A stretch of DNA of 41,948 nt, from IMG/VR virus record IMGVR_UViG_3300005824_000050, one strand, 5' to 3'. The translations under genes were made by a program, and so were the position numbers. The notes below the pieces were generated by a model. The model was given only the letters and a program-made list of their open reading frames with translations. It was not told where the DNA came from and ran no database searches. This stretch comes from a virus. Below are positions 121 to 39,664 of this stretch, one piece after another. Within the stretch, counting starts at the first letter, position 1; every line of letters begins with the position of its first letter.

Positions 121-1373
121 CAGTGCCAATCTGGGAGCGCTACGCCTACATCAAGGGGGCTGACCGCATCTACGACCTCAGGGCGAGGCAGATGCTCAAG
201 CCTGAGGCATTCAAGAAGGCATACAACATCGGCACCACCGACCTCTACGACGAGGCGTTCATCCAAGGCAAGATGTCGCGTTTCGACAACGTCACCTACT
301 GGCCCGGCGCTGAGAGTGGAGGCCGGGTGTCACTGGAGGGGCGTGAGTGTTTAAACACCTGGACGCCCGGAGAGCTTGTGCCTGTCGAGGGCGACGCCAC
401 ACCCTGGTTGTCCCTGTTCGAGCACGCGAAGTTCCCTGAGGCCGAGGCGCAGCATGTCCTCGACTACCTCGCCTTCATGCTCCAGCACCCAGGCATCAAG
501 ATAAACCACGGTCTCGTGATTGGTGGGGCGCACGGCATAGGTAAGGACTCCATCCTTGAGCCAGTGAAGCGTGCTCTCGGGTACCACAACGTCGGCACGC
601 CCTCTGGGGAGCTATTGCTGTCGGACTTCACCGACTGGGCCGCCGGCAAGAAGCTGGTGGTGTTCCAGGAGGTGGCGGTGGCCAACAGGCGGGAGGCGCG
701 AGACATTGAGCACAAGCTGAAGCCCGTACTCGCGGCCCCACCATCGTCGCTCAGTATCCACCCGAAGGGGCTGCCGGTGTATGAGTCGCCGAACCTCATC
801 CAGTTGGTGGTGGTGACCAACGAGAGGCGCCCGCTGCACGTCTCACAGGGCGACAGGCGCTACTTCATGACCTGGGGTGAGTGGCACCCTGGGGTGGAGG
901 AGAGGAGGCGCTGGACGAGGTTCTGGGAGGACCTGCACCGGTGGCTCGATGGTGGTGGTGCGGCCCAGGTGTATGGCTACCTGCTCGGGCGTGACGTGTC
1001 GGGGTTCAACCCAGGTGCCACACCTCCACTGACAGAGTGGAGGGAGGAGGTGGCCGAGGCGAGCCTCAGTGACATAGCAATGGAACTGCAGGACAGGTTG
1101 CACGAGGGTCATGGGGTGTTCGGGTGGGAGGTGGTAACCGCGGAGGAACTGGTGGGAGCGCTACTCGGGGTGACCGTCAACGGGCGCCCAATCGGGAAGA
1201 GGGCAGTGTCCAACGCACTCGCCGACCTCGGGTACCAGTCACAGACAAAGAGGTTCGGAGACACCTCCAGGGTGAGGTATTACGTGCTCAGGGAGGAGGA
1301 AAAGTGGCTCGGGGAGGACGTGACCGCGGCGCAAATTTTGGGGTACATGAAAGCGGGGAGAATTTTGTGCTAG
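1..1373 (+). CDS. DNA primase/helicase, C-terminal P-loop (SF3/D5-like) helicase part; 3' portion of the gene starting at 40826
   Basis: Frame open from nt 3; Walker A GGAHGIGKDS and Walker B-like KKLVVFQEV; in frame with 40826..41948 once the 120-nt repeat is collapsed. Confidence 0.85.
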   Translation, partial: LLKDLSVQCGITLKTLRGELAKLVKGVRAQEEQKGLRDEPVPIWERYAYIKGADRIYDLRARQMLKPEAFKKAYNIGTTDLYDEAFIQGKMSRFDNVTYWPGAESGGRVSLEGRECLNTWTPGELVPVEGDATPWLSLFEHAKFPEAEAQHVLDYLAFMLQHPGIKINHGLVIGGAHGIGKDSILEPVKRALGYHNVGTPSGELLLSDFTDWAAGKKLVVFQEVAVANRREARDIEHKLKPVLAAPPSSLSIHPKGLPVYESPNLIQLVVVTNERRPLHVSQGDRRYFMTWGEWHPGVEERRRWTRFWEDLHRWLDGGGAAQVYGYLLGRDVSGFNPGATPPLTEWREEVAEASLSDIAMELQDRLHEGHGVFGWEVVTAEELVGALLGVTVNGRPIGKRAVSNALADLGYQSQTKRFGDTSRVRYYVLREEEKWLGEDVTAAQILGYMKAGRILC

Positions 1374-1391
1374 CAATTCTCGGAGAATTGC
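1373..1391. promoter_or_regulatory. 19-bp perfect palindrome GCAATTCTC-G-GAGAATTGC (operator-like site)
   Basis: Read directly; an 18-nt core AATTCTCGGAGAATTGCG is repeated at 1597..1614. Confidence 0.5.
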
Positions 1392-1400
1392 GAGTCGTCC

Positions 1401-1592
1401 GGGCCACAGGCCGTTACCTTTTTTCCGCTATGGCCCGCCCTCTGGTAAACGACGTCCGCCAAAAACAAGGACTTACGCTCTGCGGGCCACAGGGCCACAG
1501 GAAAACGTCAAGTCTCAATAGCTCCAGCGACACACAACATGTTGTGTCGTCAGGGACCATCTACAATAGGCCGGGCCATGGCCCTGTGGCCC
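1401..1592. repeat. GGGCCACAGG iteron-like repeats (1401, 1484, 1492 direct; 1583 inverted)
   Basis: Four copies of a 10-mer in a 285-bp non-coding region; adjacent 12-bp palindrome GGGCCATGGCCC at 1573..1584. Confidence 0.6.
1532..1547. repeat. 16-bp perfect palindrome ACACAACATGTTGTGT
   Basis: Read directly; extends to about 22 bp with a 2-nt bulge. Confidence 0.7.
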
Positions 1593-1596
1593 GGGT

Positions 1597-1614
1597 AATT
1601 CTCGGAGAATTGCG
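1597..1614. promoter_or_regulatory. second copy of AATTCTCGGAGAATTGCG palindromic site
   Basis: 18/18 identical to 1375..1392; followed by a 7-bp stem hairpin at 1619..1639 just before the RBS of the 1658 gene. Confidence 0.5.
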
Positions 1615-1657
1615 TGATGCTCGCACTAAAACTGCGAGCAGCTAAAGGAGACGGTGT

Positions 1658-2098: not shown

Positions 2099-2101
2099 GT
2101 G

Positions 2102-2331: not shown

Positions 2332-2552
2332 GCCGTTTAAACATCACACTGGAGTACCGGGATGGGCGGCCCTCGAAGCAGTCGAGGGACCTCCTTCCGG
2401 AGGATGTTGCCATCCACATTCGAGAGCTTGCGTACAGGGTGGCGGCCGGCGAGCTTGCAGGTGTCTACGTCACCAGGGCGAGGCCGCTTGACATACCGAC
2501 ACGGACGGGTCAGGATGCCGGCCCAACAACCAAGGAGAGACGACATGGGTGA
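2328..2552 (+). CDS. hypothetical protein
   Basis: GAGGAGGAG RBS; ATGA start/stop overlap with the upstream ORF. Confidence 0.6.
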   Translation: MSRLNITLEYRDGRPSKQSRDLLPEDVAIHIRELAYRVAAGELAGVYVTRARPLDIPTRTGQDAGPTTKERRHG

Positions 2553-3258: not shown

Positions 3259-3270
3259 AGGAGTTTAAAC

Positions 3271-4698: not shown

Positions 4699-5015
4699 AC
4701 TGCAAACAGCTACGCCGGGCGTGTGAAATGGCGGAGATGGATGTTACCAGCGGGCCCTCGATGGACGGGCCAGATGCGTGGTGCGTTCGTTACGGCGATT
4801 CGTGGTTATGGGCTATCTACAAGGACCACCGCGAATGGATTGAAAGTCGCTGCGCCTCGCTTCTGGTGGCGAAGGTGCGGGAGCGTAATTTAGGGCAGAA
4901 GCTGTGGTTGCAGCTAATTGATGTAGCGGAATTCGAGTTTCAAAAACCAACTGTAGTCGCCACCGACCAGCAGCGCATCACCGCCGCGATGGCCGTGCTG
5001 GAGGACAAGCCATGA
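4695..5015 (+). CDS. hypothetical protein (ends LEDKP)
   Basis: GTGA overlap preceded by GGAGTGGAGG; alternative ATG at 4729. Confidence 0.55.
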   Translation: MNCKQLRRACEMAEMDVTSGPSMDGPDAWCVRYGDSWLWAIYKDHREWIESRCASLLVAKVRERNLGQKLWLQLIDVAEFEFQKPTVVATDQQRITAAMAVLEDKP

Positions 5016-5332
5016 TGGATGAACCCACGGTGCTGGCTCTCTTCAAGCGATACCGCGCCGGGGAGAAGGGCTATGTGCTCGCAATGGAGGCGGGTGTTCA
5101 CTGGCACACACTGTATCGGCGGTTTAAACGCTACCGCCCCGCAGATGGTCGGCACCGGCGCAGGACACTGTCCGCGGAGCAGGTACTACAGGCCCGGAGG
5201 GATTACGACAACGGCAGGGGCGGCGTCACGGTGATGCAGTTGGCCAAAGCACATGGGGTGGGCTACACGACAATGTGGAGTTGCTTGAGCTATCAGACCT
5301 ACAGGTACATCAGAGGAGAACGACATGGATGA
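5012..5332 (+). CDS. helix-turn-helix DNA-binding protein
   Basis: GGAGGACAAGCC-ATGA junction; two HTH-like segments (YVLAMEAGVHWHTLYRRF; VMQLAKAHGVGYTTMWSCL). Confidence 0.65.
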   Translation: MMDEPTVLALFKRYRAGEKGYVLAMEAGVHWHTLYRRFKRYRPADGRHRRRTLSAEQVLQARRDYDNGRGGVTVMQLAKAHGVGYTTMWSCLSYQTYRYIRGERHG

Positions 5333-6174: not shown

Positions 6175-6446
6175 ACCGGAGGCAGAGACCTTCGCGGGCG
6201 CCTCGCAGGTGTGAGCCTGTGGGGTACTCAGAAGCTTTCTGGAATGCGTTTAAACGCGGAGACCTGGAGGTACTGGCCACCGAGGAACTCCGGACGGCGC
6301 AGTCCCTGGAGAGGGCTCGGGAGAGACGGGACCCGTTCTACTTTTCACCCCACCTCGATGCTTTGGGGCTAATTCTGGCGCAAAGGCGCACACTACCGAC
6401 CACACTGGACCACAATCTAGCCGCAGTAGAGGAGAGAGGACGATGA
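6171..6446 (+). CDS. hypothetical protein
   Basis: ATGA overlap; internal start of track ORF 6114..6446. Confidence 0.6.
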   Translation: MNRRQRPSRAPRRCEPVGYSEAFWNAFKRGDLEVLATEELRTAQSLERARERRDPFYFSPHLDALGLILAQRRTLPTTLDHNLAAVEERGR

Positions 6447-7000: not shown

Positions 7001-8646
7001 GCATGACCCTCGAAGCCGCGGAGGCCCAGGTCCGGTCGCTGCCCGCCGAGATACGCGAGCAGTTGATTGCGGCGACCGGAGCCTGGGCCCCTCTGCCAGG
7101 ACCGCAGACTGAGGCGTACCTGTCCCTGGCTGACATCCTGTTCTATGGCGGGGCCGCTGGAGGGGGGAAGACGGACCTCCTTCTCGGGGTGGCACTGAAC
7201 GAGCATCAGCGGGCGTGCATCTGGAGGCGGGAGTCCCCGCAGCTTCAGGGAATCACCGACAGGATGAACGAGATACGCCCCGATGCCCGGGACCACTTCC
7301 ATAGCCAGAAGGGCATTTGGACCTTCCCCGGCGGCCCCCAGATTGAACTAGGCTCGTGCCCCCATGTGGGCAATGAGACCCGGTATCAGGGCCGGCCGCA
7401 TGACCTGAAAGGCTTCGATGAGATATGCCACTTCACTGAGGGGCAGTTCCGTTTTCTCATTGGCTGGCTGAGGTCGACCACGCCGGGCCAGAGGAAGCGG
7501 GTCGTGTGCACCGGCAACCCGCCGACACGGCCGGAGGAGCGGTGGGTTATAGACTTCTGGGGACCCTGGCTGAAGAAAGACCACCCGAACCCCGCGAAGC
7601 CGGGTGAGCTTCGGTACTTCTACACCGACCCCGAGACCGGCCGGGACACGGAACACCCAGATGGTGTCCCCTTCTTTCACGAGGAGAGCGGGGAGGTGGT
7701 GCTGCCACTGTCGCGCACATTCATCTCGTCCGAGATTGACGACAACCCGTTCCTCGCCCGCTCAGGGAACCGCTCAGTGCTCCAGGGGCTGCCTGAACCG
7801 TTGCGTAGTCAGCTACTCAAGGGCAACTTCTACGCAGGGCTCCAGGACCACGAGAGACAGGTCATCCCGACAGCCTGGGTGCAGGCCGCGATGGACCGGT
7901 GGAAGCCCCGAGACGATAAGGGGCAGATGACCGCGGTGGGCGTGGACCCGAACCGGGGAGGCGCGGACAAGCTCGGGTTGTCGCGCCGGCACGGGTCGTG
8001 GTTCGATGAGATTCTCACCTATTCAGGCGCCGAGGTCCCAGACGGGCCTGCGGCGGCGTCTATCGTGGTTCAACATCTTCGGGGTGCGTGCCCTATCAAT
8101 GTCGACGTTATCGGCTACGGGTCGTCGTGTGTTGACTTCCTCACCGGATTAGGTTTAAACGTCAATGCGATGAACGGGTCCGCGGGGTCGTCCCTGGTGG
8201 ATAAGACGGGCCGGCTGAAGTTCTACAATCTCAGGACCAAATGGTACTGGGAGCTTCGGGAGATGCTTGACCCGGCGAACACCGAACCTGTTGCACTGCC
8301 TCCAGACTCGGCGCTCCTGGCTGAACTGTGCGCTCCTCGGTACACCGTGAAGACCTCAGGCTCGGGCTCTGGGCTCACCGCTACGATTCAGGTGGAGAGC
8401 AAGGATGAGCTTCTGAAGCCTTCCCGTCTGGGTCGGAGCCCGGACATGGCGGACGCCCTGGTCTATGCCTCGGCGGGCATGGAGAACTGGGGCACGTACC
8501 CCGCGGGTAGCCGGATGGGCGGCCCACGGGATATTATCAGCCAGAGGACCCGCCCTGAATCGGCCAAACGCGGCCAGAGTAGCCCAGTTGGCGGAGACTG
8601 GAACCGTTCCCTGGACTACAGCAACATCGACCGAGGCATTGTCTGA
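6997..8646 (+). CDS. terL: terminase large subunit
   Basis: Walker A YGGAAGGGKTD near the N-terminus; 549 aa; sits directly upstream of portal; GTGA-coupled start (alternative ATG at 7003). Confidence 0.9.
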   Translation: MSMTLEAAEAQVRSLPAEIREQLIAATGAWAPLPGPQTEAYLSLADILFYGGAAGGGKTDLLLGVALNEHQRACIWRRESPQLQGITDRMNEIRPDARDHFHSQKGIWTFPGGPQIELGSCPHVGNETRYQGRPHDLKGFDEICHFTEGQFRFLIGWLRSTTPGQRKRVVCTGNPPTRPEERWVIDFWGPWLKKDHPNPAKPGELRYFYTDPETGRDTEHPDGVPFFHEESGEVVLPLSRTFISSEIDDNPFLARSGNRSVLQGLPEPLRSQLLKGNFYAGLQDHERQVIPTAWVQAAMDRWKPRDDKGQMTAVGVDPNRGGADKLGLSRRHGSWFDEILTYSGAEVPDGPAAASIVVQHLRGACPINVDVIGYGSSCVDFLTGLGLNVNAMNGSAGSSLVDKTGRLKFYNLRTKWYWELREMLDPANTEPVALPPDSALLAELCAPRYTVKTSGSGSGLTATIQVESKDELLKPSRLGRSPDMADALVYASAGMENWGTYPAGSRMGGPRDIISQRTRPESAKRGQSSPVGGDWNRSLDYSNIDRGIV

Positions 8647-10793
8647 TGGCGACACCCGAAGAGGCTCTCCCACCTGAACTCATCGACGAGGAGATGGCCC
8701 AGGAGATGCGGCGCCTGTTCGAGGAGACCGGGGGCGGAGATGAGGAGGGGGAGGCGGGGGATTTCTCCGGGCTCACCGAGGACCAGATTGTCGCCATCAT
8801 CCAGCACGACATCGAGTCGGCGGATACGGGGGAAACGTCGGACGACCGTGTCGAGGCTCTCGACTACTACATGGGCCGCAAGCGCGGGGACGAGATTGCG
8901 GGCAGGTCTCAGGTCATCAGCACCGATGTGGCCGACGTCGTTGAGTGGGTGCTCCCCGAGGTGCTGAAGGCGTTCAACAGTCCTGAAAGCACCGTCAGGT
9001 TCGACGCCATCGACGAGGAGGATGAGGAGGTCGCGCTCCTCGAAACTGAGGCCACCCATTACGAGTTCTTTGTCCGCAACAGCGGCTTCCTGAACCTCTA
9101 CACCATGGTGAAGGATGCGCTGCTATTGCGTAACGCCGTGATGAAGGTTTACCAGGACACCTCGGTCAAGGTGAGTCGTGAGACCAGAGAGGGTTTAAAC
9201 GACATCGAGTTCGCCGAGTACCTGCAACCCGACGACGGTACCGAGGTCTACCCAATCGCGCACGAGCCCTACGAGGTGATGGCGCCAGCGCCGCCAGAGA
9301 TGCAGCAGGCAGGCATCACCGAGATTCCGCTGACCCTGCATAACGTCACCATCAAGAGGGTGCGCAGTCAGGGGCGGCGACGTATCGAGGCCATCCCTCC
9401 GGAGTGTTTCCTCTATTCACGAGGGCACAACAGTCTGAATCTTGACGAGGTTCCCTTCTGCGCCCATGAACGAGAGGCAACCGAGTCACAGTTGATTTCC
9501 GAGGGGTGGGACTCCGAGATGATTCGGGCGCTACCCACGTACAACTACACCGATGAGGACGGCGTGCGTTCATCACGTCGTCCAGAGGGTATCGACCCGA
9601 CCGACTACGACCTCAGCAATCTTGACACGGCCAACAGGCCCATCAAGGTGTATGAGTGCTATAAGACCCTCGACATCGAGGGCGACGGGATGCCTGAGCT
9701 ATACATGATTCATGTGGCAGGGGACGCTGGCGGGTACCAGATGATGGGGTACGAACCGGTTGAAGAGAACCCCTTTGTCGGCACGACCTGCATCATCATG
9801 ACGCATGCCTTCGAGGGGCGAAGCCTGTTCGACCGCTGCAAACAGATTCAGGACACCAAGACCTCCTTGCAGCGCAATCTTCTGGACAACATCTACTTCC
9901 AGAACAACCAGCGCCACGAGGTGGTCACCGGGATGGTGAACCTCGACGACATGCTCACCAACCGTCCTGGAGGCATGGTCCGGGTGAAGGCTCCAGGCAT
10001 GGTCAACCCCATCCCGGTGAATCCCACTGGTGTGGAGATTTATCGCTACCTGGAGTACCTGGACCACGAGCGCGGGAATAAGACTGGCATTTCGCCCGAC
10101 GACATGCGGCAGAACAACAGGCTGCCCCAGGATTCCGCTCACGGTATCGAGAGAATCATGTCCGCGAAGGAGGAGCTTGTCGGGCTCTTCATCCGTATCC
10201 TGGCCGAGACCGGGGTGGCGCCGGTCATGCTCAAGACCCGGAACCTCCTGGTGCGTCACCAGGACTCCGAGATGCCCATCAAGGTGTCGGGGAAGTGGAA
10301 GAGGGTGGACCCTCGCAACTGGCGGGACACCCGCACAACTACGGTTACCGTTGGGCTCGGGACCGGGGACCGCAGCAGGCAGTTGCAAGTCGTGCGCGAG
10401 GTCATCACCCAGCAGGCGCAGGTCGCGATGGGTGGAGGGTTCGACGTTCTCGTGACGCACAAGCACATGCACCGGGCGTTTACGGACTTTGTCCGGTTCA
10501 GCCAACTGGGCAGCCCCGAGGACTACTGGCAGGACCCCGACAGCGACGAAGCCAAAGAGGCTATCGAGCGCCAGCGTGCAGAGCAGGAAGAGCAGGCGAC
10601 GAAGCAAGAACAGATGGAGACCATGCTGGTCCAGATGCAGGCGCAACTGGAGGACCAGGACCAGAAACTGAAGAACAGCCAGGAGATGGCGAGACTCGCG
10701 TTCGATTACCGAGAGTTGTCCGAGAAGGTGGCGACCGAGATGACCAAGCTCGAAGTGCAAAGCGGGAAGAATGTTCCGGAGAGTCGGGTTTAA
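8646..10793 (+). CDS. portal protein
   Basis: 715 aa directly after terL (TGATG overlap); long acidic, coiled-coil C-terminal barrel-like tail; stop codon is the TAA inside GTTTAAAC. Confidence 0.85.
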   Translation: MATPEEALPPELIDEEMAQEMRRLFEETGGGDEEGEAGDFSGLTEDQIVAIIQHDIESADTGETSDDRVEALDYYMGRKRGDEIAGRSQVISTDVADVVEWVLPEVLKAFNSPESTVRFDAIDEEDEEVALLETEATHYEFFVRNSGFLNLYTMVKDALLLRNAVMKVYQDTSVKVSRETREGLNDIEFAEYLQPDDGTEVYPIAHEPYEVMAPAPPEMQQAGITEIPLTLHNVTIKRVRSQGRRRIEAIPPECFLYSRGHNSLNLDEVPFCAHEREATESQLISEGWDSEMIRALPTYNYTDEDGVRSSRRPEGIDPTDYDLSNLDTANRPIKVYECYKTLDIEGDGMPELYMIHVAGDAGGYQMMGYEPVEENPFVGTTCIIMTHAFEGRSLFDRCKQIQDTKTSLQRNLLDNIYFQNNQRHEVVTGMVNLDDMLTNRPGGMVRVKAPGMVNPIPVNPTGVEIYRYLEYLDHERGNKTGISPDDMRQNNRLPQDSAHGIERIMSAKEELVGLFIRILAETGVAPVMLKTRNLLVRHQDSEMPIKVSGKWKRVDPRNWRDTRTTTVTVGLGTGDRSRQLQVVREVITQQAQVAMGGGFDVLVTHKHMHRAFTDFVRFSQLGSPEDYWQDPDSDEAKEAIERQRAEQEEQATKQEQMETMLVQMQAQLEDQDQKLKNSQEMARLAFDYRELSEKVATEMTKLEVQSGKNVPESRV

Positions 10794-10796
10794 ACG

Positions 10797-12170
10797 ATGG
10801 ACTACTCTTTCCGGTCAACGAATCCCCTGGACGTGTTGCGCAACGCCTATGGCGCCGCGGTCAACGGGCTGAAGGGGGCGCTTCAGCCTGGAGGGCGAGC
10901 CGTGGGCATGGTGGGGGCGTCTCCAGAGGAACGTCTACGCCGAATCTCCACCGCGGTGAAACAGATGGGCTACGAAAGTCGCCACGGTGCTGGAGGGGAC
11001 CCGAGCAAGCCGTACCGGGAGAAGCACTTCACCGAGATGCTCCCGACAGACCCCCAGGAGGTCACCGCCGCAGTGGCGCAGGCCGGCCTCGGTGCAGGGT
11101 TCCTGTCCCGCGGCTTCGGCGCAGGAGCCCGTAGCGGGACCCTGAACACCTTCCTCGGTCCAGAGTCCGCGACCGCGAACCTCGACGCCCTCGCTGCGGC
11201 AAAGCAATTCGAGAAGGCCGGAGTCCCGTCTCGGGATATCTGGAAGACCACCGGGTGGGGCAAGGGCCCGGACGGGAACTGGATTTATGAAATCTCGGAC
11301 GAGGCCTTGAGGGTGAAGCCGGCGATTCAGCAGCACCTGGACGACTTCGAGAGACACGCGTTGCACAAACCGAAGGACCCCAATTCTCCGGAGTGGAAAG
11401 GCTGGGTTAACAGCAATGCTGCCATGCGGGATATACCTCCCGCCGGCACCGGGTGGGGCACAGACCGCGAGCTTCAGGGGTACGCGTTGTCCGGCCGGGT
11501 GGGCGACATGGTGGACCACCCAGAGCTATTCAAGGCGCTCCCTGGCGCCAGGGACATGAACCTTTCAGCAGGGGCCCCTGTGTCCCTGGAAAGACTCCTG
11601 TCGGAGTCCAGCACCCCTAAGGTGTACGGGAGTTTCAACCCCACAGAGGACCGGGTGCGCCTGATGCGCAAGCTCTACGACCACGAGACCGTGCAGTTCT
11701 CCAACCGGGGCCCGCTGGTGCATGAGTTGCAGCACGGTGCTCAGGTGCGTGGAGGACGTTCGGCCGGAGCGTCGGTTGCGAATTTCGGGGATGACTTGTC
11801 AAAAGGCGATGCGCTGCGAGCGCTCAACACCGCGAAGGAGGCTGGTGGACTGAAGAGTCTGCCGTCGGCAGTCCTGGCCGACCCCGACAAGCTGTGGGCA
11901 GCGATTAAGGACCTGCCCCGATGGCAGCTAGGGCACAAGAGCCCTGAGGACATCATGAAGGCTGTGTTCGGGAAGCCCCGCACCGCTTACGAGAAGTATC
12001 GTGCGGTACCTGGGGAACTTGAGTCGTTTGCTACGCAGCAACGTTTAAACTGGACCCCTGAGGCGCGACGCAATCTACCCCCGTGGGAGATGCCTGAGTA
12101 CCAGAAATACAACACGATGGATGAGTTCAATCTGCCTGTCGAGTCATTCCTCCAGCAGGGGAACCGTTGA
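10797..12170 (+). CDS. large virion-module protein with HExxH (zincin-like) motif
   Basis: 457 aa; LVHELQHGAQ preceded by DHPELFKALPGARD; lies between portal and scaffold. Confidence 0.7.
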   Translation: MDYSFRSTNPLDVLRNAYGAAVNGLKGALQPGGRAVGMVGASPEERLRRISTAVKQMGYESRHGAGGDPSKPYREKHFTEMLPTDPQEVTAAVAQAGLGAGFLSRGFGAGARSGTLNTFLGPESATANLDALAAAKQFEKAGVPSRDIWKTTGWGKGPDGNWIYEISDEALRVKPAIQQHLDDFERHALHKPKDPNSPEWKGWVNSNAAMRDIPPAGTGWGTDRELQGYALSGRVGDMVDHPELFKALPGARDMNLSAGAPVSLERLLSESSTPKVYGSFNPTEDRVRLMRKLYDHETVQFSNRGPLVHELQHGAQVRGGRSAGASVANFGDDLSKGDALRALNTAKEAGGLKSLPSAVLADPDKLWAAIKDLPRWQLGHKSPEDIMKAVFGKPRTAYEKYRAVPGELESFATQQRLNWTPEARRNLPPWEMPEYQKYNTMDEFNLPVESFLQQGNR

Positions 12171-13768: not shown

Positions 13769-14078
13769 GTTTAAACTCGCGAACCCGCACAGGTTGCCCG
13801 AAGACGAGATACGCTTGAGGACCGAGGAGGTCCGCAAGGGAACAGAGGCGAAGGCCTTGCTCACGTCCTCGGCATTCCAGAGCGCTTTCGCAGGTATGCG
13901 CGAAGAGGTTTTCGAGCGGTTCTGGGATGCGCCGATGAGAGATGACGAGGGCGTGAAGAAGCTGAAGTCGATGGCCTGGGCCGCCCAGAACCTCATCGAC
14001 CGGCTCACCCTGGCCGTCGAGACCGGCCGTATGGCCGAGCAGCAGCTTGAGCAACATGAGACTCTGAGGAGAGACTGA
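13755..14078 (+). CDS. hypothetical head-assembly-region protein
   Basis: GGAGGAG RBS 6 nt before ATG 13755; internal start of track ORF 13734..14078. Confidence 0.65.
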   Translation: MPTNEFKLANPHRLPEDEIRLRTEEVRKGTEAKALLTSSAFQSAFAGMREEVFERFWDAPMRDDEGVKKLKSMAWAAQNLIDRLTLAVETGRMAEQQLEQHETLRRD

Positions 14079-15219: not shown

Positions 15220-15242
15220 ACTGACAGAGCATCCAACCCAAA

Positions 15243-29638: not shown

Positions 29639-31115
29639 CTTTCCCAAGCCGGTATTCGTTGAGCGCCGCCTTCAGGCTGTCCTGGGTGGTGGCGTTTAAA
29701 CGTAGATTGATTGCCATCAGAGTATCCACGGTGTCGGGGACCATCAAGCGGTGAACTCGTATGTTGTTGCGCTGGCCCTGGCGTTCGAGTCTCGCTATCA
29801 CCTGGAGGTAGTCCTCCAGCGACCACGTCAGGCCGAAGAAGACGAGGTCTTGGCACGGGCCGTACTGGAGATTGAGACCGTGCCCGAGAGACTGAGGGTG
29901 TCCGAGGAGCAGGGGGACCTCCCCCGAGTTCCATCGGTTCTCTAAGTCGATGACCGAGTTGGTGGACAGTCGTGAGTGCATCATTTCGGCCTCAGGGAAC
30001 TTGGCCTGGATGCGTGCGACATCAGCAGGGTTAAACTGATACGCCACGAGCACCGGTTTGCCGTTGGCTTCCTCTACCACTTCTTCGAGCGCATCAAGCT
30101 TCAGGTCGTGAACCTTCTCCCAGGCGGGCTCGCCGGGGTTGAGGTACACCGCGCCGTTGCAGAACTGCCGGCACTTCATCGAACGCGCCCCGGCGTGGAA
30201 CATTTCCACGGTGTTACCGCTGTCGAGTTCGAGAAACAATTCCTCTTCCAGGCGTTCATATTGTGCCCGCAGTTTCGGGTCCAGGTTCACGTCAACATCA
30301 TTGATGACCACCTCGGGGAGTTCGAGGTAGTCGACATTCGACATCTGTATCGTTATGTCCCCCACCAGTTGCTGCACTCGCTCCTCTTGCCCGGCGCGAA
30401 TCTTGTATTTCCCCTGGTGGCCGAAGCCCTCGAAACGCAGGAAGGCGTCGCGGTATGCCGTGATGCTCTGCCCGAGTCTCCGCCCGCTGTCGATGGCGAG
30501 GTACTGCCCGAACAGGTTGTCGTAACCGTTGCTCGCGGGGGTGCCGGTGAGACCGATACGTCTGCGCAGATATGGGAGCAGCGCCTGGAGCGCGGTGTGG
30601 CGCTTGGTCCCCACATGTTTCAAGCGGGAGACCTCGTCGTACACCACAGTGGAAAACGGCAGGTATTTCCCCTTGCGTAGATAGAACGCGTCCAACTGCT
30701 CCGCGAGCCATCGCAGGTTCTCATAATTCACGAGGTACACATCTGCAGGCACCCGGTACGCCCGGTGCCTCTGGGAAGGTGTGCCGTGGATGAGGGAGAA
30801 CCTCAACCCTGAGAGGTGTTCCCACTTCTGAGCCTCTTGACGCCACACCGTTTGGCACACCCGCAGCGGGGCGATGACCAGCATCGGCCCCGTCAACATG
30901 CGGTCCCGCATTTCCACAAAAGCGGACAGCGTGATAACCGTTTTACCGAGGCCCATGTCGAGCCACAGGGCCGCCTCGGGGTGGTCAATGAGGTGCTGAA
31001 TCGCCCGGCGCTGATAGGTATGCAGCGAAGCTGGCGGAAGCTTCTCTCGTTTCACGTAGGACACGTTCGGAGTCTCCGAGGAAGTCGACCAAGGTTTCGC
31101 CCTGGTTGATATCAT
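29592..31115 (-). CDS. SNF2-family DNA helicase/translocase
   Basis: Motif I DMGLGKT, motif II VVYDEVSRLKH, motif III LTGTPASNG; start uncertain (ATG 31115 or GTG 31064). Confidence 0.85.
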   Translation of the reverse strand: MISTRAKPWSTSSETPNVSYVKREKLPPASLHTYQRRAIQHLIDHPEAALWLDMGLGKTVITLSAFVEMRDRMLTGPMLVIAPLRVCQTVWRQEAQKWEHLSGLRFSLIHGTPSQRHRAYRVPADVYLVNYENLRWLAEQLDAFYLRKGKYLPFSTVVYDEVSRLKHVGTKRHTALQALLPYLRRRIGLTGTPASNGYDNLFGQYLAIDSGRRLGQSITAYRDAFLRFEGFGHQGKYKIRAGQEERVQQLVGDITIQMSNVDYLELPEVVINDVDVNLDPKLRAQYERLEEELFLELDSGNTVEMFHAGARSMKCRQFCNGAVYLNPGEPAWEKVHDLKLDALEEVVEEANGKPVLVAYQFNPADVARIQAKFPEAEMMHSRLSTNSVIDLENRWNSGEVPLLLGHPQSLGHGLNLQYGPCQDLVFFGLTWSLEDYLQVIARLERQGQRNNIRVHRLMVPDTVDTLMAINLRLNATTQDSLKAALNEYRLGKATRKASGGETRYSPR

Positions 31116-31380: not shown

Positions 31381-33323
31381 TCTTTTCGGTACCTCTTAGA
31401 AGTGAATCCCTCGGCCCCTAGCCACAACCCGGGGGCCCACGAGGGTACAGTTGTCAGGCACTCGATGAGCGCCTGGAGGGTCGATTCTATCGTGTCGGCC
31501 TCGTCCTCAGCAACCCCCTCATCGTGGACGTGCATGCACAGCCCCAAGCCACGGTCTGTTGCGAGCCGCATGCCGTGCATCAACACATCCCGGGCGATAG
31601 CTTGCACAATGTTCTCCACAAGCTTTCCACCGTGGGTGGTCAGACGTTTCCACCTCCCGGTGTACTGGTCTTTCCCCATGTAACTGAACGACAGGCGGCC
31701 CCAGGCGTTAAGGACCACCAGGGGCTCGTAGTAACAAAGGCGCCGACCCGAGGGCAGTTCGATAAAGAGGAATTTCGGGTCACGGTAGATGCGCACCGCA
31801 TAACCCTGGAGCACTCCGCCATTGAGACCGTGTTCGGTGACTGCCATGCACCCGTCAGTGAGCCAGTCCCACAACGTGACTACCTCATGATAAGTGGACC
31901 GGAACAGGTCCACCGCGCGGTTGGCGAAGTCGTGTGTCATCTCCACCCCCATGCTGGCGGCGTACTCCACGAGACCCTTACCGCTCAGCTTGTAACCGCA
32001 ACCGAGGGTGGGTGGCTTTGCGAATTTCCTCTCAGCACCAGTGACCTCATTCTCGGGTTTCTCGAACAACACGCTGGCGAAGTCACGGTAAGCATCGCGG
32101 CCTTCGGCGAAGACTCTGTTTAAACGAGTGCAACCAGACACCCACCCGAGGAGGACGGACTCGATGGACTTGAGGTCGGCCACCGCGAGCATCTTGCCCT
32201 CGCCCGCGGTTATCCCGTTGCGTATGCCTGAGACTAGAGCCTCCATGACATTGTCGTACAGTGCCTCGACGAGGTCGCGGTCACCTCGGGAAAGTACCTC
32301 CGCGAGACCCTCGACTAGGATGCTCGGCCAGGGCAGATTGTGTGGCTGGAACACCCGGCCAGCCCACCTCCCGGTGCGGCTTGCCCCATAAAACTGGAAC
32401 AGCCCGCGCAACCGCTGGTCGTCGTTCACTGCGCGTTGAATGGCCGCCCATTTGGTGGGGGACTTCTTCGCGGTCTGCTGCCTTAGTGTCAGCACCTTGG
32501 CCGCCAGGGACGACGGGTCCAGTGAGCCCAGTGTCTCTACCACAACCTGCTTGGTGAGGTTGGGCATGTGCGCAATGCCGTTCTCCCTGCACCACCCCAG
32601 CAACTGGGGCTGGCTGTCGGGGTTCTCCAGCCCCGTGAGTACGCGCATTTCATCTTTCAGGCGGGCCAGTTCCTCGTCGTAAATCTTGACGCATGCGTCG
32701 ACCAGCGTGGTGTCGATGGGCACTCCCCGGTCATTTATGTTCTGGTCCCAGGCATACTCCCATTGCTGCGTAGCGGTCATCGGGTACGGCCGGAAGCGGG
32801 CCAGTATCTCGCGCTCTGCGACGACGTCTTGGATGTTGTAGAGCTTAAACGTCTCCCAGTCCTCGGGAGCGGTCTCAGCGGTCCAGACGGTGTCCGGATT
32901 CTTCTTGGTAGGCTTGCGGGGGGAGCAGAACTTATTGATGAGCCTCGTGCCTGACGCCAGCTTCTTGCTGTCCTGGTCAAGCCCGACCTGCTCGCCGACC
33001 TCTTTCAACCCTCCGAAAAAACCCAAGCAATACGCATGAACCTGGACGCAATGAAAGCGCTCAGGAGGCAGGTCGACGTCAAGAACATGCTTGAGGACGA
33101 GGCGCTCGAACCTTGCATTGAATGCCGCGACCTGCAGGTCCGGGTGCCTGCGTAGCAGAGTGAGCAACCCGTGAGGTATGGGCCCCACTTCCTGGGTCAC
33201 TGGTTCGAGGTCCACCGCCCATGCAGTGAGTCTCACCCGGCAACTAGGGTGGCGTACGTATATGTCCGCGCCGACCTGCCTGAGGTTGAGGTCGCAGTAG
33301 GTCTCGAAGTCTAGGTGAATCAT
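31377..33323 (-). CDS. family A DNA polymerase with 3'-5' exonuclease domain
   Basis: Exo I HLDFETY; motif A DLKSIESV; motif B FAKPPTLGCGY; motif C HVHDE; start placed at ATG 33323 because the upstream in-frame codons contain a terminator hairpin. Confidence 0.9.
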   Translation of the reverse strand: MIHLDFETYCDLNLRQVGADIYVRHPSCRVRLTAWAVDLEPVTQEVGPIPHGLLTLLRRHPDLQVAAFNARFERLVLKHVLDVDLPPERFHCVQVHAYCLGFFGGLKEVGEQVGLDQDSKKLASGTRLINKFCSPRKPTKKNPDTVWTAETAPEDWETFKLYNIQDVVAEREILARFRPYPMTATQQWEYAWDQNINDRGVPIDTTLVDACVKIYDEELARLKDEMRVLTGLENPDSQPQLLGWCRENGIAHMPNLTKQVVVETLGSLDPSSLAAKVLTLRQQTAKKSPTKWAAIQRAVNDDQRLRGLFQFYGASRTGRWAGRVFQPHNLPWPSILVEGLAEVLSRGDRDLVEALYDNVMEALVSGIRNGITAGEGKMLAVADLKSIESVLLGWVSGCTRLNRVFAEGRDAYRDFASVLFEKPENEVTGAERKFAKPPTLGCGYKLSGKGLVEYAASMGVEMTHDFANRAVDLFRSTYHEVVTLWDWLTDGCMAVTEHGLNGGVLQGYAVRIYRDPKFLFIELPSGRRLCYYEPLVVLNAWGRLSFSYMGKDQYTGRWKRLTTHGGKLVENIVQAIARDVLMHGMRLATDRGLGLCMHVHDEGVAEDEADTIESTLQALIECLTTVPSWAPGLWLGAEGFTSKRYRKE

Positions 33324-34052: not shown

Positions 34053-34096
34053 GGCTCTCATTCCTTATCGTTTAAACGGGTTACTGTGGTTTCCGG

Positions 34097-35968: not shown

Positions 35969-36745
35969 TCAGCCTATGTTGACGACTCCCCGGCACACCG
36001 GGCAGCACATCCCCTCGTCCTCTGCAAGGGCGTATTCAATCCACTTCTGGGTGATGCGGAACACCGCGCCGCAGGCACCATCCTCGCACTCGACCTTGAT
36101 GAGCCGGGTGGTCTGCTTCTTCTCACCAGTGCCCTTGACCAGGGCAGCGTGAGGGTAGGACCCCATGTCGTCGAGGATGGGCTGGACCTTCTCGATGAAG
36201 CGGGGGCCGCCATTAGTCGAGGTGGGCTTCCCCTCCAGGCCGATGGCCAGCATGAGGCGTTTAAACGGTGCCTTGTGCCCGACCTCGCTGCCCAGGTACA
36301 TGTGAATCATTTCATGCGCCAGGATGTCGGCGACACGCAGGGGCTCGTCGAGGAAGGGCGAGATGAACATCTCCACCGCGCCATCCTTGCTCGAAGTCCC
36401 CGACCAGCACTCGCCGATACGCTTGCGGGCGGAGCCTCCACCAGGGAAGCCGCAGGACACCCGGTAGTGCGGGAGGTCCTGGGGGACGACCAGGAACTGC
36501 TCGTTGAACTCGCGGTCGCTGAACACCTCGGTGTGCAGGCGCACGGTCAGTTCGCGCAGCCACTGCTCGCGGGTCAGTGTGTCGCCGGAGGAGCGGGGCG
36601 CTTCCAGCTTCCACCACATCCAGCGGCCGTCGGAGTCGACCGCCATCTCGAAGTCAGTGCCGCGCACGGCGTCAGTGCCCAGTTCAGCCTTCGCAGCGCG
36701 GCGGCAAGAACCCTGGTTCGCATAGGTCTTGGTCTCGGTGCTCAT
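35969..36745 (-). CDS. SprT-like zinc metalloprotease with C-terminal zinc ribbon
   Basis: ILAHEMIHMYLG (HExxH) plus CxxxxC...CCPVC. Confidence 0.75.
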   Translation of the reverse strand: MSTETKTYANQGSCRRAAKAELGTDAVRGTDFEMAVDSDGRWMWWKLEAPRSSGDTLTREQWLRELTVRLHTEVFSDREFNEQFLVVPQDLPHYRVSCGFPGGGSARKRIGECWSGTSSKDGAVEMFISPFLDEPLRVADILAHEMIHMYLGSEVGHKAPFKRLMLAIGLEGKPTSTNGGPRFIEKVQPILDDMGSYPHAALVKGTGEKKQTTRLIKVECEDGACGAVFRITQKWIEYALAEDEGMCCPVCRGVVNIG

Positions 36746-36783: not shown

Positions 36784-36812
36784 AGTTTAAACAGGTGATG
36801 CAGACGTGTCAA
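36784..36812 (-). promoter_or_regulatory. sigma70-type promoter (TTGACA-17-TAAACT)
   Basis: - strand: -35 at 36812..36807, -10 at 36789..36784, which is formed by the GTTTAAAC motif. Confidence 0.6.
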
Positions 36813-37329: not shown

Positions 37330-37367
37330 GGCTCAGTTCTCGTGTTGCGTTTAAACAGGACAAGCGA

Positions 37368-37396
37368 ATCGTACAGACATGATACCCCCGTGTCAA
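37368..37396 (-). promoter_or_regulatory. sigma70-type early promoter (TTGACA-17-TACGAT)
   Basis: - strand GGTGTTGACACGG; GTTTAAAC lies 11 nt after the -10. Confidence 0.7.
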
Positions 37397-37690: not shown

Positions 37691-39204
37691 TCTCCCTCGG
37701 TGTTGATGACCATGTGGACTGCCCGCTTCGCCCGGGTACTCGCGACGTAGAGCAGCGAGGAGGTCATGTACCCGGCGCTCAGCTTGGCAGGGGCGAAGTA
37801 CACCCGGTCAACGGTCTGCCCCTGGCAGCGGTGGACGGTCATGGCGTAGTTGTAGCCGACTGGCAGGAACAGGTTCTTGAACTCGTGGTACGCGACCCAG
37901 GACCCGGTCAGTTCAGCGTGGTCCGCCAGGGCGCGAAGCTTCGCCGTGTACTCGGGGCCGCCCAGCTTCGAGTGGTCCGCGGTGTACTCGGTCACCATGA
38001 ACATGATTGGGACCATGACACCGTTGTCGAGCTTGACCACGTAGCAGGGTACGTCGTCAATCTCCGCGGCCTGCACCCGCTCCACCATGTAGCTGGTGCC
38101 GGAGTAGAACCGCAAGCGGTCCTCCTTCGACGTGGTGCCGACGGGCTGGATGTCGACAGTCGCCATCACCATGAGGCGCTCGTCCTCGATGACAGGGAAC
38201 TGCTCAGCACGTTCGGCACCATAGAGACCGGCGCGGATGGTGGCGTTCGCCGAGACCACATCAGCGCGGCGGAAGAACAACACCCGGGCGTCTTCCTTCG
38301 GGGCAGCCTTCGAGTCGGCCACGTAGGTCTCCAGGAGCGCCTCGACACTCGGGTGGAGGTGGATGCCGGCGCTCCCGGTCCAGTCGTGCCGGGCGACCTC
38401 CTCAGGGGTGTTGCGGGCCATCTGCTCCAGGGTGTAGAGGTCGCTGTCGGCGCTGTAGCGCATCGGCTCGGTGAGAGTCGTGCTGAGCGTGATGCCCGCG
38501 AGCACACTGTCGCGGTACTGACCGACAGGGGGCAGTTGCTTCAGGTCACCCACGACCAGGAGCTTTCCTCCATGGTGCTCGGCGCCAGCCAGGAGGCGGC
38601 GGCCGATGTCGTCGCCCACCATCGAATACTCGTCGACGATGAGCAGGCGCTTGCGCCCGAGGTGCTCGACGACCATCTCATCGCTGTCCAGGCTCCACAC
38701 ATACTCGGACTTCGAGTCGACCGTGACCTTGTCGAGGCGGAAGGTGGAGGCGATGGTCTTCGCCTCGACCGCAAGGGCCGCCAGTTGCTTCGAGAGCACC
38801 TGGGTGGCGACGTAGGAGGTGGCGCAGGCGTGAACCCTGTAACCCTGCTCGATGGCGTTGCGCACCACGTCCATCACAGTGAAGGACTTGCCGTAGCCGG
38901 CCCCACCTTCGAGCTTGGCCGCAGGCTCAACGCCCTGGAGCCACTCGGACAGGAAGGCCGAGGAGGCCTTCTGGCTTTCGTTCAGGGTGTAGTCCGCGGA
39001 GACCTTCGCCAGGGCCGCCCGCTGCGAGCCGTTGATGGCGGACTCGATGGACTCGCGGTTGCTGTTGACAAAGCTGACCAGCCCATCCCAGGCGTCACTG
39101 TCGCCGGCCTTGCGCACCATCCAGCGCAGGTACCCCGGGTCCATCTCGGACAGGGGAGTACCGCGGTGCTTGCCGAAGGGGACAGTGATTTCGTTGATGT
39201 TCAT
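37687..39204 (-). CDS. RecD/Dda-like SF1 DNA helicase with N-terminal DUF3820-like motif
   Basis: Walker A GGAGYGKSF, Walker B LLIVDEYSMV, TVHRCQGQTVDRV; N-terminal FGKHRGTPLSEMDPGYLRWM. Confidence 0.85.
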   Translation of the reverse strand: MNINEITVPFGKHRGTPLSEMDPGYLRWMVRKAGDSDAWDGLVSFVNSNRESIESAINGSQRAALAKVSADYTLNESQKASSAFLSEWLQGVEPAAKLEGGAGYGKSFTVMDVVRNAIEQGYRVHACATSYVATQVLSKQLAALAVEAKTIASTFRLDKVTVDSKSEYVWSLDSDEMVVEHLGRKRLLIVDEYSMVGDDIGRRLLAGAEHHGGKLLVVGDLKQLPPVGQYRDSVLAGITLSTTLTEPMRYSADSDLYTLEQMARNTPEEVARHDWTGSAGIHLHPSVEALLETYVADSKAAPKEDARVLFFRRADVVSANATIRAGLYGAERAEQFPVIEDERLMVMATVDIQPVGTTSKEDRLRFYSGTSYMVERVQAAEIDDVPCYVVKLDNGVMVPIMFMVTEYTADHSKLGGPEYTAKLRALADHAELTGSWVAYHEFKNLFLPVGYNYAMTVHRCQGQTVDRVYFAPAKLSAGYMTSSLLYVASTRAKRAVHMVINTEGE

Positions 39205-39239
39205 GGCTCGGTTCTCGTGTTGCGCGTTGTGTGGGTGGA

Positions 39240-39268
39240 ACAGTACCAGGGTGATGCTGTCGTGTCAA
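39240..39268 (-). promoter_or_regulatory. sigma70-type early promoter (TTGACA-17-TACTGT)
   Basis: - strand GAGTGTTGACACGA; the stop codon of the upstream gene lies inside the -35 hexamer. Confidence 0.65.
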
Positions 39269-39501
39269 CACTCCTGGGGGGTATTTTTCGGCCGAGGGTA
39301 ACGGCCGATGAACTCCAGGCCCGCGGGGATGGCGTCAACCTCGGTCCAGCGAGAGGAGGAGAAGCTGTCTCCATGCAACTGGTACTGGCTGGCGAAGATG
39401 CGGCCGTCCGGGGACACCGCGAACAGGGTTTCCATGGACTGGTTGCTGACGGGGCAAATGTCGAACTGCAAGAACCCCTTGTAGTAAGTGGCGGTCTTCA
39501 T
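39265..39501 (-). CDS. hypothetical protein
   Basis: ATG 39501 lies downstream of the promoter, GTTTAAAC and GAGGA RBS; internal start of track ORF 39265..39693. Confidence 0.6.
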   Translation of the reverse strand: MKTATYYKGFLQFDICPVSNQSMETLFAVSPDGRIFASQYQLHGDSFSSSRWTEVDAIPAGLEFIGRYPRPKNTPQEC

Positions 39502-39541
39502 GGTGTCGTCCTCAGTGAGTGCGTTTAAACAGTGTGGACGT

Positions 39542-39570
39542 AGTATACGGAACCGATACGGGCGTGTCAA
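39542..39570 (-). promoter_or_regulatory. sigma70-type early promoter (TTGACA-17-TATACT)
   Basis: - strand GAGTGTTGACACGCC; then ACGTCCACACT-GTTTAAAC, the same layout as the + strand promoter at 2102. Confidence 0.75.
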
Positions 39571-39664
39571 CACTCCGAACATTAACTTTCGGTAATGCTG
39601 ACACGCTTGTATCAAGCTGTTTAAACTGATACCCTTGTCACTGGGAAGGGCGGGCGGGGTTCCC

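Follow-up and report, generated by a model that had tools for sequence, protein, structure and literature searches.

In this study we describe the octamer GTTTAAAC, a perfect palindrome that is repeated 25 times in a closed phage genome, the 41,948-nucleotide stretch of IMG/VR virus record IMGVR_UViG_3300005824_000050 (hereafter the window, meaning the whole stretch). The word is a real element of this genome: it is exact, palindromic and evenly spaced, it is kept by strong selection at the level of DNA, and it is conserved across a phage clade. It ranks first among the 8-mers of the window, and its 25 copies compare with 0.19 expected from dinucleotide-preserving shuffles (maximum 2), an excess of about 130-fold, and with 0.11 expected under a first-order Markov model. 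One copy occurs per ~1.7 kb, both within and between genes, in a genome of 62.3% G+C. A first-pass annotation, made from the letters of the window, had listed 25 start coordinates, put the chance expectation at about 0.2 and named shuffled genomes as the proper control. The coordinates were all exact, the expectation agreed with the shuffle mean, and the controls yielded only ~0.2-0.5 copies.

The word is used in its exact form. One-mismatch variants numbered 6, compared to 5-6 expected by an estimate from base composition, and this chance level points to all-or-none recognition. The earlier list of such variants had to be corrected: the one placed at 17435 starts at 17436, that given as GTTAAAC at 30030 is GGTTAAAC at 30029, and two had been overlooked, at 11632 (GTTTCAAC) and 28360 (GTTCAAAC). 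TTTAAA never occurs in the window outside GTTTAAAC: each of its 25 copies is flanked by G and C, and together they account for 25 of the 64 all-A/T hexamers. Over 51 sites of the clade, there was a weak preference for C at -1 and G at +1 (49% vs ~31%), as the previously noted CGTTTAAACG tendency had suggested, and no extended consensus was found around these sites past the two positions. The two 12-bp palindromes reported around the copies at 6248 and 16331 were also borne out.

Several lines of evidence indicate that selection acts on the nucleic acid word and not on the protein, which was the core proposal of the first-pass annotation and is now strongly supported by the codon shuffle, the use of rare codons, the conservation of orthologous sites and the turnover of sites. 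When synonymous codons were shuffled within 46 genes, the coding sequences held 0.50 +/- 0.68 copies (maximum 3), compared to 14 observed. Among the 26 positions of the proteome that permit the word (xxG-Phe-Lys-Cxx or xGT-Leu-Asn), 14 carry it, in spite of the codons required: TTA accounts for 17 of 1097 leucine codons, and TTT and AAA are minor codons. The copies are read as Phe-Lys, Leu-Asn or Val-stop in genes of both orientations; the frames assigned before to the copies in genes were right, as was the use of the TAA as the stop codon of the portal and scaffold genes. Twelve copies lie deep inside open reading frames (ORFs), in two frames, two provide stop codons and 11 are at other boundaries or intergenic. 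Thus, once gene starts had been refined, 13 of the 25 sites were in non-coding DNA or at gene boundaries, which together account for 5.7% of the genome (P=2e-10), and non-coding DNA is ~18-fold denser in sites. The distance from the boundary copies to the start codon varied from 0 to ~32 nt, with no fixed translational or promoter geometry. The word therefore acts as DNA and not as RNA or peptide. A signal of either kind is very unlikely in view of the perfect palindrome, the use of all frames and the two gene orientations. A role in mRNA, analogous to the start-associated sequences of mycobacteriophages, had been proposed and is disfavoured by the same features, by the copies deep in ORFs and by the variable distance to the start; those sequences are asymmetric, lie on the sense strand and keep a fixed distance, whereas about half of the copies here are internal to ORFs.

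Relatives were recovered by searches with the portal, polymerase and primase proteins. All nine independent relatives with at least 44% identity in the portal or at least 69% in the DNA polymerase carry GTTTAAAC, so the word is conserved and enriched in related phages, a check that had been proposed earlier. There were 13 copies in 30.5 kb of JBFGYN010000001.1 (L006/L183; portal 67%, primase 44%), 5 in 8.3 kb of L011 (portal 62%), 4 in 6.6 kb of L012 (portal 61%), 2 in 4.3 kb of L013 (portal 45%), 1 in 3.2 kb of L020 (portal 44%) and 6 in 12 kb of L179 (polymerase 69%). The same phage from another sample (L019, 99.75% identical) has 8 in 9.4 kb. More distant relatives (AP1, BPP-1, DC33, zth2-2, L014, L181 and L184) have 0-1 copies each. 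In codon alignments of orthologues, at 65-74% nucleotide identity, 11 of 22 window sites were identical, compared to 6.1% of the other 8-mers (Fisher P=1.6e-8). Lost sites are made good by others close by. The gene of the large terminase contains exactly one site per genome, at three different positions: the window and L011 use the same Gly-Leu-Asn, L013 has a new Gly-Leu-Asn 5 codons away, and in L006 the site is elsewhere. In the portal gene, GGT-TTA-AAC is retained in four genomes and is GGG-CTG-AAC in L011. Because lost sites are replaced by nearby ones, the local density of sites is under stabilising selection. We also considered that the sites might be junctions for the exchange of modules. 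This was rejected: the BLASTN blocks were uniformly 65-74% identical, no tracts of recent exchange ended at sites, and the boundary of a non-homologous segment at 16.9-20 kb is ~540 bp from the nearest GTTTAAAC.

The copies are spaced more regularly than expected by chance. On the circular map of the window, the gaps had a coefficient of variation of 0.56, compared to 0.95 for random placement (P=0.0016), and only one gap was shorter than 500 bp, compared to 6.2 expected. The earlier description of the spacing as fairly even at 0.8-3.2 kb was thus correct in its evenness and too narrow in its range, which is 96 to 4690 bp. The relatives are regular as well: the gaps in L012 are 1595, 1404 and 1525 bp (P=0.003), and L179 (P=0.006) and the 13 sites in 30.5 kb of JBFGYN010000001.1 (P=0.046) gave similar results. 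The largest gap in the window covers 11% of the genome. This 4.7-kb gap coincides with a segment of lower G+C content at third codon positions (GC3), within which a one-off variant lies at 17436. The segment (16.9-20 kb) was probably acquired recently, since it has no homologue in JBFGYN010000001.1. It includes ORF 16885-18516 (543 aa, GC3 0.67), with an N-terminal Peptidase_S11 (D-Ala-D-Ala carboxypeptidase) domain.

We tentatively suggest that a strict and probably symmetric reader recognises GTTTAAAC, which would mark phage DNA at even intervals for a process that tracks along DNA, a reading that we prefer while holding it at somewhat less than even confidence. Selection would keep a bare exact 8-bp word all around the circular genome, with a copy every 1-2.5 kb or so, and would place it where it is cheapest, that is, at gene junctions, in stop codons and in Phe-Lys or Leu-Asn dipeptides. 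The reader would be all-or-none and most likely two-fold symmetric, similar to Type II methyltransferases and endonucleases or to an equally strict dimeric binder, and it may be encoded by the phage or by the host. The sites would then act in cis to separate phage DNA from the G+C-rich DNA of the host, where by our estimate chance alone would give one copy in ~200 kb. The user of these marks might be a process that reaches ~1-2 kb along DNA, e.g. recombination or repair, protection, or replication restart, and the few copies in the early-promoter cassette may additionally modulate those promoters. A bare exact 8-bp palindrome is the kind of target that belongs to Type II methyltransferases and endonucleases, and GTTTAAAC is the specificity of PmeI/MssI. 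A classical transcription factor site, in comparison, is normally longer, partly degenerate and intergenic.

Some observations weigh against this suggestion. No methyltransferase or restriction endonuclease domain was detected in any window ORF by Pfam, PHROGs and NCBIfam, and the same scans of essentially all window ORFs gave no integrase, recognisable restriction enzyme or ParB; the genome has no tRNA either. To some extent this is accommodated by a reader that goes unrecognised in the phage, since restriction-type proteins often cannot be recognised by sequence. A conserved copy next to a promoter fits an operator better. The palindrome could come from economy, if one site served both strands for a reader of single-stranded DNA. 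Highly iterated palindrome 1 (HIP1) of cyanobacteria, which is the model for such a word, is itself without a settled function. Finally, the palindromes CCCGCGGG, CATCGATG and CGAGCTCG, enriched in sister lineages, showed no regular spacing, and with their spacing irregular they may represent another phenomenon.

Apart from GTTTAAAC, selection on restriction-type palindromes has left a strong imprint on the window. GATC is absent, compared to 144 expected, and CACGTG, CAGCTG, CTCGAG, GAGCTC, CGATCG, GGATCC and CCTAGG are absent as well (~14 expected each); GCGCGC and CGCGCG occur once against 38, and CTAG occurs 21 times against 144. GATC is also missing from L011, L012, L013, L019, L020 and L179. 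In JBFGYN010000001.1 (58.6% G+C), the 30.5 kb read contain 210 GATC, and this genome has the only methyltransferase of the clade, a Dam-family gene (PF05869; L006:5966-6517 = L183:14404-14955). This looks like the carriage of a methylase replacing the avoidance of sites within one clade. The GATC-type signatures probably reflect the host. Because they vary between members, the clade is exposed to different restriction pressures, and since GTTTAAAC stays common to the clade under these different pressures, a reader intrinsic to the phage is mildly favoured. The contrast is not decisive, because restriction systems vary by strain and words of the Chi or HIP type are conserved at higher taxonomic ranks.

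Other words are iterated in the sister lineages. CCCGCGGG occurs 16 times in 22 kb of L016-18 (P=2e-26), CATCGATG 14 times in DC33 (L003) and 7 times in its relative zth2-2 (L005), and CGAGCTCG 7 times in the 17.5 kb of L180. A strongly enriched dispersed 8-mer was present in 30 related loci and was palindromic in 6 of them, which is above the 0.8% expected. Four of the 6 belong to the GTTTAAAC clade, so only three lineages are represented, and with the other palindromes irregularly spaced we have toned down a general rule of alternate palindromes. Bare non-palindromic 8-mers are enriched inside ORFs of the relatives L141, L032/L033, L034, L104 and L124. These words include TCTGGTGG in L141, which is like Chi of E. 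coli, AAGCGGAA in L032/L033, which contains AGCGG as does AGCGGAAA, and ACGCGGAA (L034) and CGCCGGAA. Their orientation in L034 and L032 switches with map position and not with gene strand, and the six copies in L104 all have one orientation. It seems that bare iterated words acting on DNA are common in this phage group; among them, GTTTAAAC stands out as the most extreme and as the only one with even spacing. The abundant 8-mers of AP1 proved irrelevant, as they come from an 18-bp tandem repeat.

No protein family common to all the phages with enriched palindromes was found when the window, L006, L179, L016/18, DC33, L180 and L117 were compared all-against-all with BLASTP and phmmer, relatives devoid of the motif serving as controls. 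What the window has in common with the other lineages is limited to the large terminase in DC33, to portal and capsid in L016, and to the replication module in L180, which is ~50% identical there and goes with another type of primase. Within the clade, the candidates conserved between the window and JBFGYN010000001.1 are an XRE-like helix-turn-helix (HTH) protein (40478-40723, 53% identical), whose gene adjoins the primase gene in both genomes, the small-terminase-like protein of 1658-2098 (54% identical to L006:4754-5182), a 72-aa protein (3040-3258), the rare primase, VRR-NUC (30985-31380), the RecD-like helicase and the PD-(D/E)XK nuclease. Two HTH proteins had been put forward in the first-pass annotation. 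One of them, at 40478..40723, is the conserved protein just mentioned, and its own promoter lacks a site; the other, at 5012..5332, has no detectable homologue in the relatives. When the HTH and small-terminase-like proteins were compared with solved structures, no informative match was obtained. The product of 1658-2098 has weak phmmer similarity to Bbp26 of BPP-1 (E=0.007) and a similarity of 2e-10 to a protein of L181. Its gene lies ~5 kb upstream of that of the large terminase, next to the primase gene.

A more specific form of our suggestion is a self-marking system, which we regard as doubtful though worth stating. An unrecognised phage protein would read GTTTAAAC, the genome would have been recoded to one copy per 1-2 kb, and phage DNA, but not host DNA, would be subject to replication priming, recombination or nuclease protection. 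The reader could be an enzyme of a restriction fold, the rare Prim-Pol primase, or the RecD-like helicase together with the PD-(D/E)XK nuclease. Such a system would be a virus-encoded equivalent of Chi, of DNA-uptake sequences or of HIP, and its specificity would have been replaced in the sister lineages by CCCGCGGG, CGAGCTCG or CATCGATG.

The main rival, which we consider possible but unlikely, is that the copies form an operator array for a dimeric regulator encoded by the phage, similar to stoperators or to KorA/KorB. This regulator would silence the early promoters at +5..+12 or over the -10, and the copies inside transcription units would serve as bidirectional roadblocks or silencers; a silencer acting on the whole genome would need roadblocks that are evenly spaced. 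The early promoters form a family (TTGACAC-N4-GYATC...TAnnnT) with seven copies in the window, compared to 0.23 expected. They are part of a cassette that reads TTGACAC-N4-GYATC...-10...leader GCA(A/C)CACGAG/GCACTGAGGAC...GAGCC-ATG and that is duplicated before the RecD-like, DUF6011, SprT-like and small early genes. Four of the seven copies contain the exact word, as would be expected for the overlap of stoperators with early lytic promoters. In two, 36812- and 39598+, it supplies the -10 (TAAACT), where the first-pass annotation had seen one such case. In two others, 37396- and 39570-, it lies 11 nt past the -10, at +5..+12; three had been claimed, and 2102+ turned out to have the variant GTTTAACC. 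The copies at 3545+ and 39268- are without the motif. JBFGYN010000001.1 has six cassette copies, and its five leftward early promoters all have the motif or a one-off variant 8-13 nt past the putative -10: one has the exact word, 11 nt past (L183:6524), and four have variants (GTTTACAC twice, GTTTCAAC and GTTTTAAC). The element is thus an old part of a duplicated promoter-leader cassette. The high density of sites in non-coding DNA and the conserved XRE-type gene beside the primase gene are also in keeping with operators.

Other features fit the operator array less well. From the density of non-coding sites, ~1.9 sites would fall in the seven promoters by chance, and the 4 seen are not significant (~P=0.1). 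The link to promoters is real but largely reflects the paralogous early-promoter cassette, outside which one-off variants are not enriched. Exactness is not kept where an operator would matter most, since 4 of the 5 motif-bearing promoter copies of JBFGYN010000001.1 are variants and its non-promoter sites are exact. A bare 8 bp without information in the flanks is too short for classical HTH dimers, 12 sites lie deep in ORFs despite the cost in codon usage, the promoter of the XRE gene has no site, and no integrase, CI-type repressor, partition genes or lysogeny module were found among the window ORFs. The stoperators of cluster A mycobacteriophages (bound by L5 gp71), the conserved inverted repeats of phiC31 and the KorA/KorB operators of IncP plasmids are sites of 12-17 bp. 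They resemble GTTTAAAC in that 20-30 near-identical short sites are scattered over ~40-60 kb, some of them over early promoters, and in being specific to the element and rare in the host. Stoperators, however, are asymmetric, co-oriented with transcription, essentially intergenic and tied to a known repressor, whereas the palindrome here has no orientation, about half of its copies are internal to ORFs and neither a repressor nor a lysogeny module is evident. A site for a late activator, also proposed before, is unsupported, because the sites in the late region have no promoter-like geometry. Sites acting as sigma-70-type promoters were rejected likewise: there is no excess of promoter-like sites in the late region, and in the CCCGCGGG lineage promoter-like matches were at chance level. 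The earlier opinion that the possible roles are inseparable by sequence therefore holds for a binding site as opposed to a target of modification or nicking, and does not hold for the roles at the level of mRNA and of late activation.

It is improbable, in our judgement, that the word is a signal in single-stranded DNA for a tracking enzyme, either as sites where the Prim-Pol/DUF5906 primase starts Okazaki fragments or as a Chi-like tamer of a helicase-nuclease; one palindromic site would then serve both strands or directions. The spacing of ~1-2.5 kb is on the scale of Okazaki fragments or of Chi, and the word is bare, exact and independent of coding. The Prim-Pol of NrS-1 reads an 8-nt template word, TTTGGTTA (PMC8718748), and the reader here would likewise be a helicase-fused phage Prim-Pol. 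That word differs in having few sites, thought to mark the origin, and in being non-palindromic, not iterated and not evenly spaced. The window primase belongs to a very rare family, with 6 proteins at E<=1e-30 in a search of 5.8 billion sequences and 3 at an identity of at least 44%. The two of these on readable contigs are both in GTTTAAAC-rich genomes, and a 25%-identical one is on a contig with 0 copies. In L180, a window-like polymerase/helicase/nuclease module (~50%) goes together with another primase type and another octamer. This correlation with primase type is confounded with the overall phylogeny. The non-palindromic words of the relatives, some Chi-like and some switching orientation by position, also agree with a single-strand signal. 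However, a palindrome is needless for a single-strand reader, and by chance only 1 in 256 words is palindromic; the primase sites known so far are 3-5 nt long, and enrichment for them is not known from any genome. Chi resembles GTTTAAAC as a bare word of 5-8 nt that lacks a consensus in its flanks, is tolerated within coding sequences and has its effect on DNA metabolism. It differs in being asymmetric, orientation-dependent, G-rich, abundant in the host and defined by a host enzyme, whereas GTTTAAAC is palindromic and A+T-rich.

Distributed packaging signals are very improbable. In this case the small terminase would read the word, and packaging would start, or a headful cut would be made, every 1-2 kb and almost never on host DNA. 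The conserved small-terminase-like gene, a circular assembly compatible with headful packaging and a largest gap of only 11% of the genome are favourable to this. However, the palindrome gives no direction, L181 has a homologue of the small terminase and no GTTTAAAC, and the pac sites known to us are single clustered loci. Least of all do we believe that the word has no function of its own, being a by-product of biased repair or mutation (a model proposed for HIP1; PMC4390886), an RNA or peptide signal, or an artefact of assembly or engineering; this is disfavoured by near-cognate words that are neither depleted nor enriched, three synonymous one-step precursors left unconverted, the positional conservation and compensation of sites, their regular spacing, their presence in three frames, both gene orientations and non-coding DNA, and the same pattern in independent assemblies from several projects.

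The closest described phenomenon appears to be HIP1 (GCGATCGC) of cyanobacteria, an exact palindromic octamer that is 15- to 300-fold over-represented at ~0.3-2.7 per kb, within and between genes and in all frames, kept by selection, replaced by other palindromes in some lineages and associated with a methyltransferase (PMC5861425, PMC4390886). Recent preprints tie it to the DNA-uptake machinery and to transformation and recombination, which are stimulated in a methylation-dependent manner that is called 'reminiscent of Chi'. The role suggested here for GTTTAAAC runs parallel to the one now being proposed for HIP1. The present word is comparable in abundance, as an exact palindromic octamer far above the expectations from composition and from a Markov model (~130-fold, 0.4-0.85 per kb). 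It is comparable in placement, within and between ORFs, in several frames and with no peptide or RNA rationale, and in conservation, with 50% of sites identical over a background of 6.1% and with compensatory relocation. Other palindromes occur in some related lineages here too. In contrast to HIP1, the word resides in a 42-kb phage and not in a chromosome, it is A+T-rich within a G+C-rich genome, and a cognate methyltransferase gene was not found in the window. One-off variants, common around HIP1, are not enriched here, and the spacing is locally regular at 1-2 kb, whereas HIP1 is periodic at 10-90 kb. Because the features of the sequence agree and the methyltransferase and the chromosomal context do not, we would call the element HIP-like and not a member of HIP. 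In addition, the nick sites of T5 and of phiKMV-like and LUZ24-like/tf phages are ~ten to twenty short sites on which a site-specific enzyme acts. They are similar in being defined short sites along a podophage or siphophage genome and differ in an asymmetric, strand-specific consensus, for which no enrichment by codon choice has been described.

Our literature searches gave no account of a phage with an enriched palindromic octamer. Iterated exact palindromes such as HIP1 have been unexplained for ~30 years, in part because their copies number in the thousands and are spread over megabase chromosomes. With 25 copies and ~55 genes in 42 kb, and with evident selection, turnover and regular spacing, this phage would be a far more tractable system, in which all GTTTAAAC sites could be removed synonymously and every candidate reader could be tested. 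If the reader is encoded by the phage, a virus would here distinguish its own DNA from that of the host in a new manner. If it is encoded by the host, the phage would mimic a HIP-, Chi- or uptake-like word of an uncultured G+C-rich host. The word is also a genomic signature by which this phage clade can be spotted in metagenomes. The sites are listed in the table with the early-promoter cassettes.

Table. Copies of GTTTAAAC in the window and early-promoter cassettes in the window and in JBFGYN010000001.1.
Feature	Position	Strand	Remarks
GTTTAAAC in primase gene, GT-TTA-AAC (Leu-Asn)	349..356		same alignment column in JBFGYN010000001.1
GTTTAAAC intergenic	2335..2342		3 nt past stop of Zn-ribbon ORF 2170-2331; 19 nt before ATG 2362
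GTTTAAAC intergenic	3263..3270		between Shine-Dalgarno GGA and ATG 3271; abuts the ATG
GTTTAAAC in ORF 5012-5332	5122..5129		G-TTT-AAA-C, Phe-Lys
GTTTAAAC in ORF 6114-6446 (Phe-Lys)	6248..6255		within 12-bp palindrome GCGTTTAAACGC; orthologous site in L011
GTTTAAAC in large terminase gene (GGT TTA AAC)	8153..8160		same column in L011; relocated in L006; 5 codons off in L013
GTTTAAAC in portal gene (GGT TTA AAC)	9193..9200		same column in L006, L012, L013; GGG CTG AAC in L011
GTTTAAAC giving portal TAA stop	10788..10795		1 nt before ATG 10797; same in L011, L012; GTATAAAC in L006
GTTTAAAC in ORF 10797-12170 (Leu-Asn)	12043..12050		site elsewhere in the gene in each relative
GTTTAAAC in ORF 12167-13768 (Phe-Lys)	12964..12971		
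GTTTAAAC right after TGA of ORF 12167-13768	13769..13776		upstream of 13734/13800-14078 gene; site upstream of homologue in L012
GTTTAAAC giving scaffold TAA stop	15214..15221		21 nt before major capsid ATG; same in L006, L012
GTTTAAAC right after G+C-rich hairpin following capsid gene	16331..16338		16 nt before ATG 16355; equivalent in L006
GTTTAAAC in lysozyme gene 20690-21208 (Leu-Asn)	21021..21028		closes 4.7-kb motif-free gap
GTTTAAAC intergenic	22711..22718		between GAGG and ATG 22720
GTTTAAAC in ORF 23724-25286 (Phe-Lys)	24179..24186		
GTTTAAAC at gene junction	26530..26537		6 nt before ATG 26544; conserved in L179
GTTTAAAC in SNF2 helicase gene (minus-strand gene, Leu-Asn)	29694..29701		
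GTTTAAAC in family-A DNA polymerase gene (minus-strand gene, Leu-Asn)	32118..32125		
GTTTAAAC between DUF2800 nuclease and SSB genes	34070..34077		equivalent junction site in JBFGYN010000001.1 (L183:3597)
GTTTAAAC in SprT-like gene (minus-strand gene, Phe-Lys)	36259..36266		
GTTTAAAC over -10 (TAAACT) of early promoter 36812..36784 (minus)	36785..36792		
GTTTAAAC 11 nt downstream of -10, early promoter 37396..37368 (minus)	37349..37356		
GTTTAAAC 11 nt downstream of -10, early promoter 39570..39542 (minus)	39523..39530		same architecture at L183:6524
GTTTAAAC over -10 (TAAACT), promoter-like site 39598..39627 (plus)	39619..39626		96 bp from preceding copy
Early-promoter cassette, window	2102	+	
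Early-promoter cassette, window	3545	+	
Early-promoter cassette, window	39598	+	
Early-promoter cassette, window	36812	-	
Early-promoter cassette, window	37396	-	
Early-promoter cassette, window	39268	-	
Early-promoter cassette, window	39570	-	
Early-promoter cassette, JBFGYN010000001.1	L183:6524	-	
Early-promoter cassette, JBFGYN010000001.1	L183:7034	-	
Early-promoter cassette, JBFGYN010000001.1	L183:8610	-	
Early-promoter cassette, JBFGYN010000001.1	L183:9243	-	
Early-promoter cassette, JBFGYN010000001.1	L183:9619	-	
Early-promoter cassette, JBFGYN010000001.1	L183:13617	+	

The genome was recognised as closed from its terminal 120 bases, which are identical (1-120 and 41829-41948), and this exact overlap indicates a circular assembly with a unit of ~41.83 kb (~41,828 bp). 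The junction of the ends falls within the gene for the 783-aa Prim-Pol/DUF5906 primase, so that ORF 21-1373 represents only the C-terminal part of this protein. Structural genes in the window encode a large terminase, an SU10-type portal, a scaffold, an SU10-type major capsid protein, an SU10 adaptor, a lysozyme and a holin. A leftward replication module comprises an SNF2 helicase, VRR-NUC, a family-A DNA polymerase, an Enc34-type single-stranded-DNA-binding protein (SSB), a DUF2800/PD-(D/E)XK nuclease, a SprT-like protein, DUF6011 and a RecD-like helicase. About 20 of the genes are small ORFs without annotation, and the phage looks lytic. No near-identical DNA was found among GenBank phages by megablast, and an initial portal-based scan of viral contigs gave no close relative; for the large terminase, identities of 46-53% were obtained with the corresponding proteins of Acidovorax phage AP1, Limnohabitans phage DC33 and Bordetella phage BPP-1.

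A few minor observations were made in addition. ORF 6443-7000, directly upstream of the large terminase gene, encodes another unannotated protein and contains an exact 36-bp tandem duplication (6745-6819). In ORF 35485-35961, a hexanucleotide tandem repeat of CGGGAG (12 copies, 35682-35757) encodes a Pro-Ala repeat and accounts for the second most frequent 8-mers of the window. The GenBank record of Limnohabitans phage DC33 (L003, PQ492659.1) stands under Inoviridae, yet the genome is 39 kb and its large terminase, 49% identical to that of the window, is of the tailed-phage type; this placement is probably a taxonomy error in the record.

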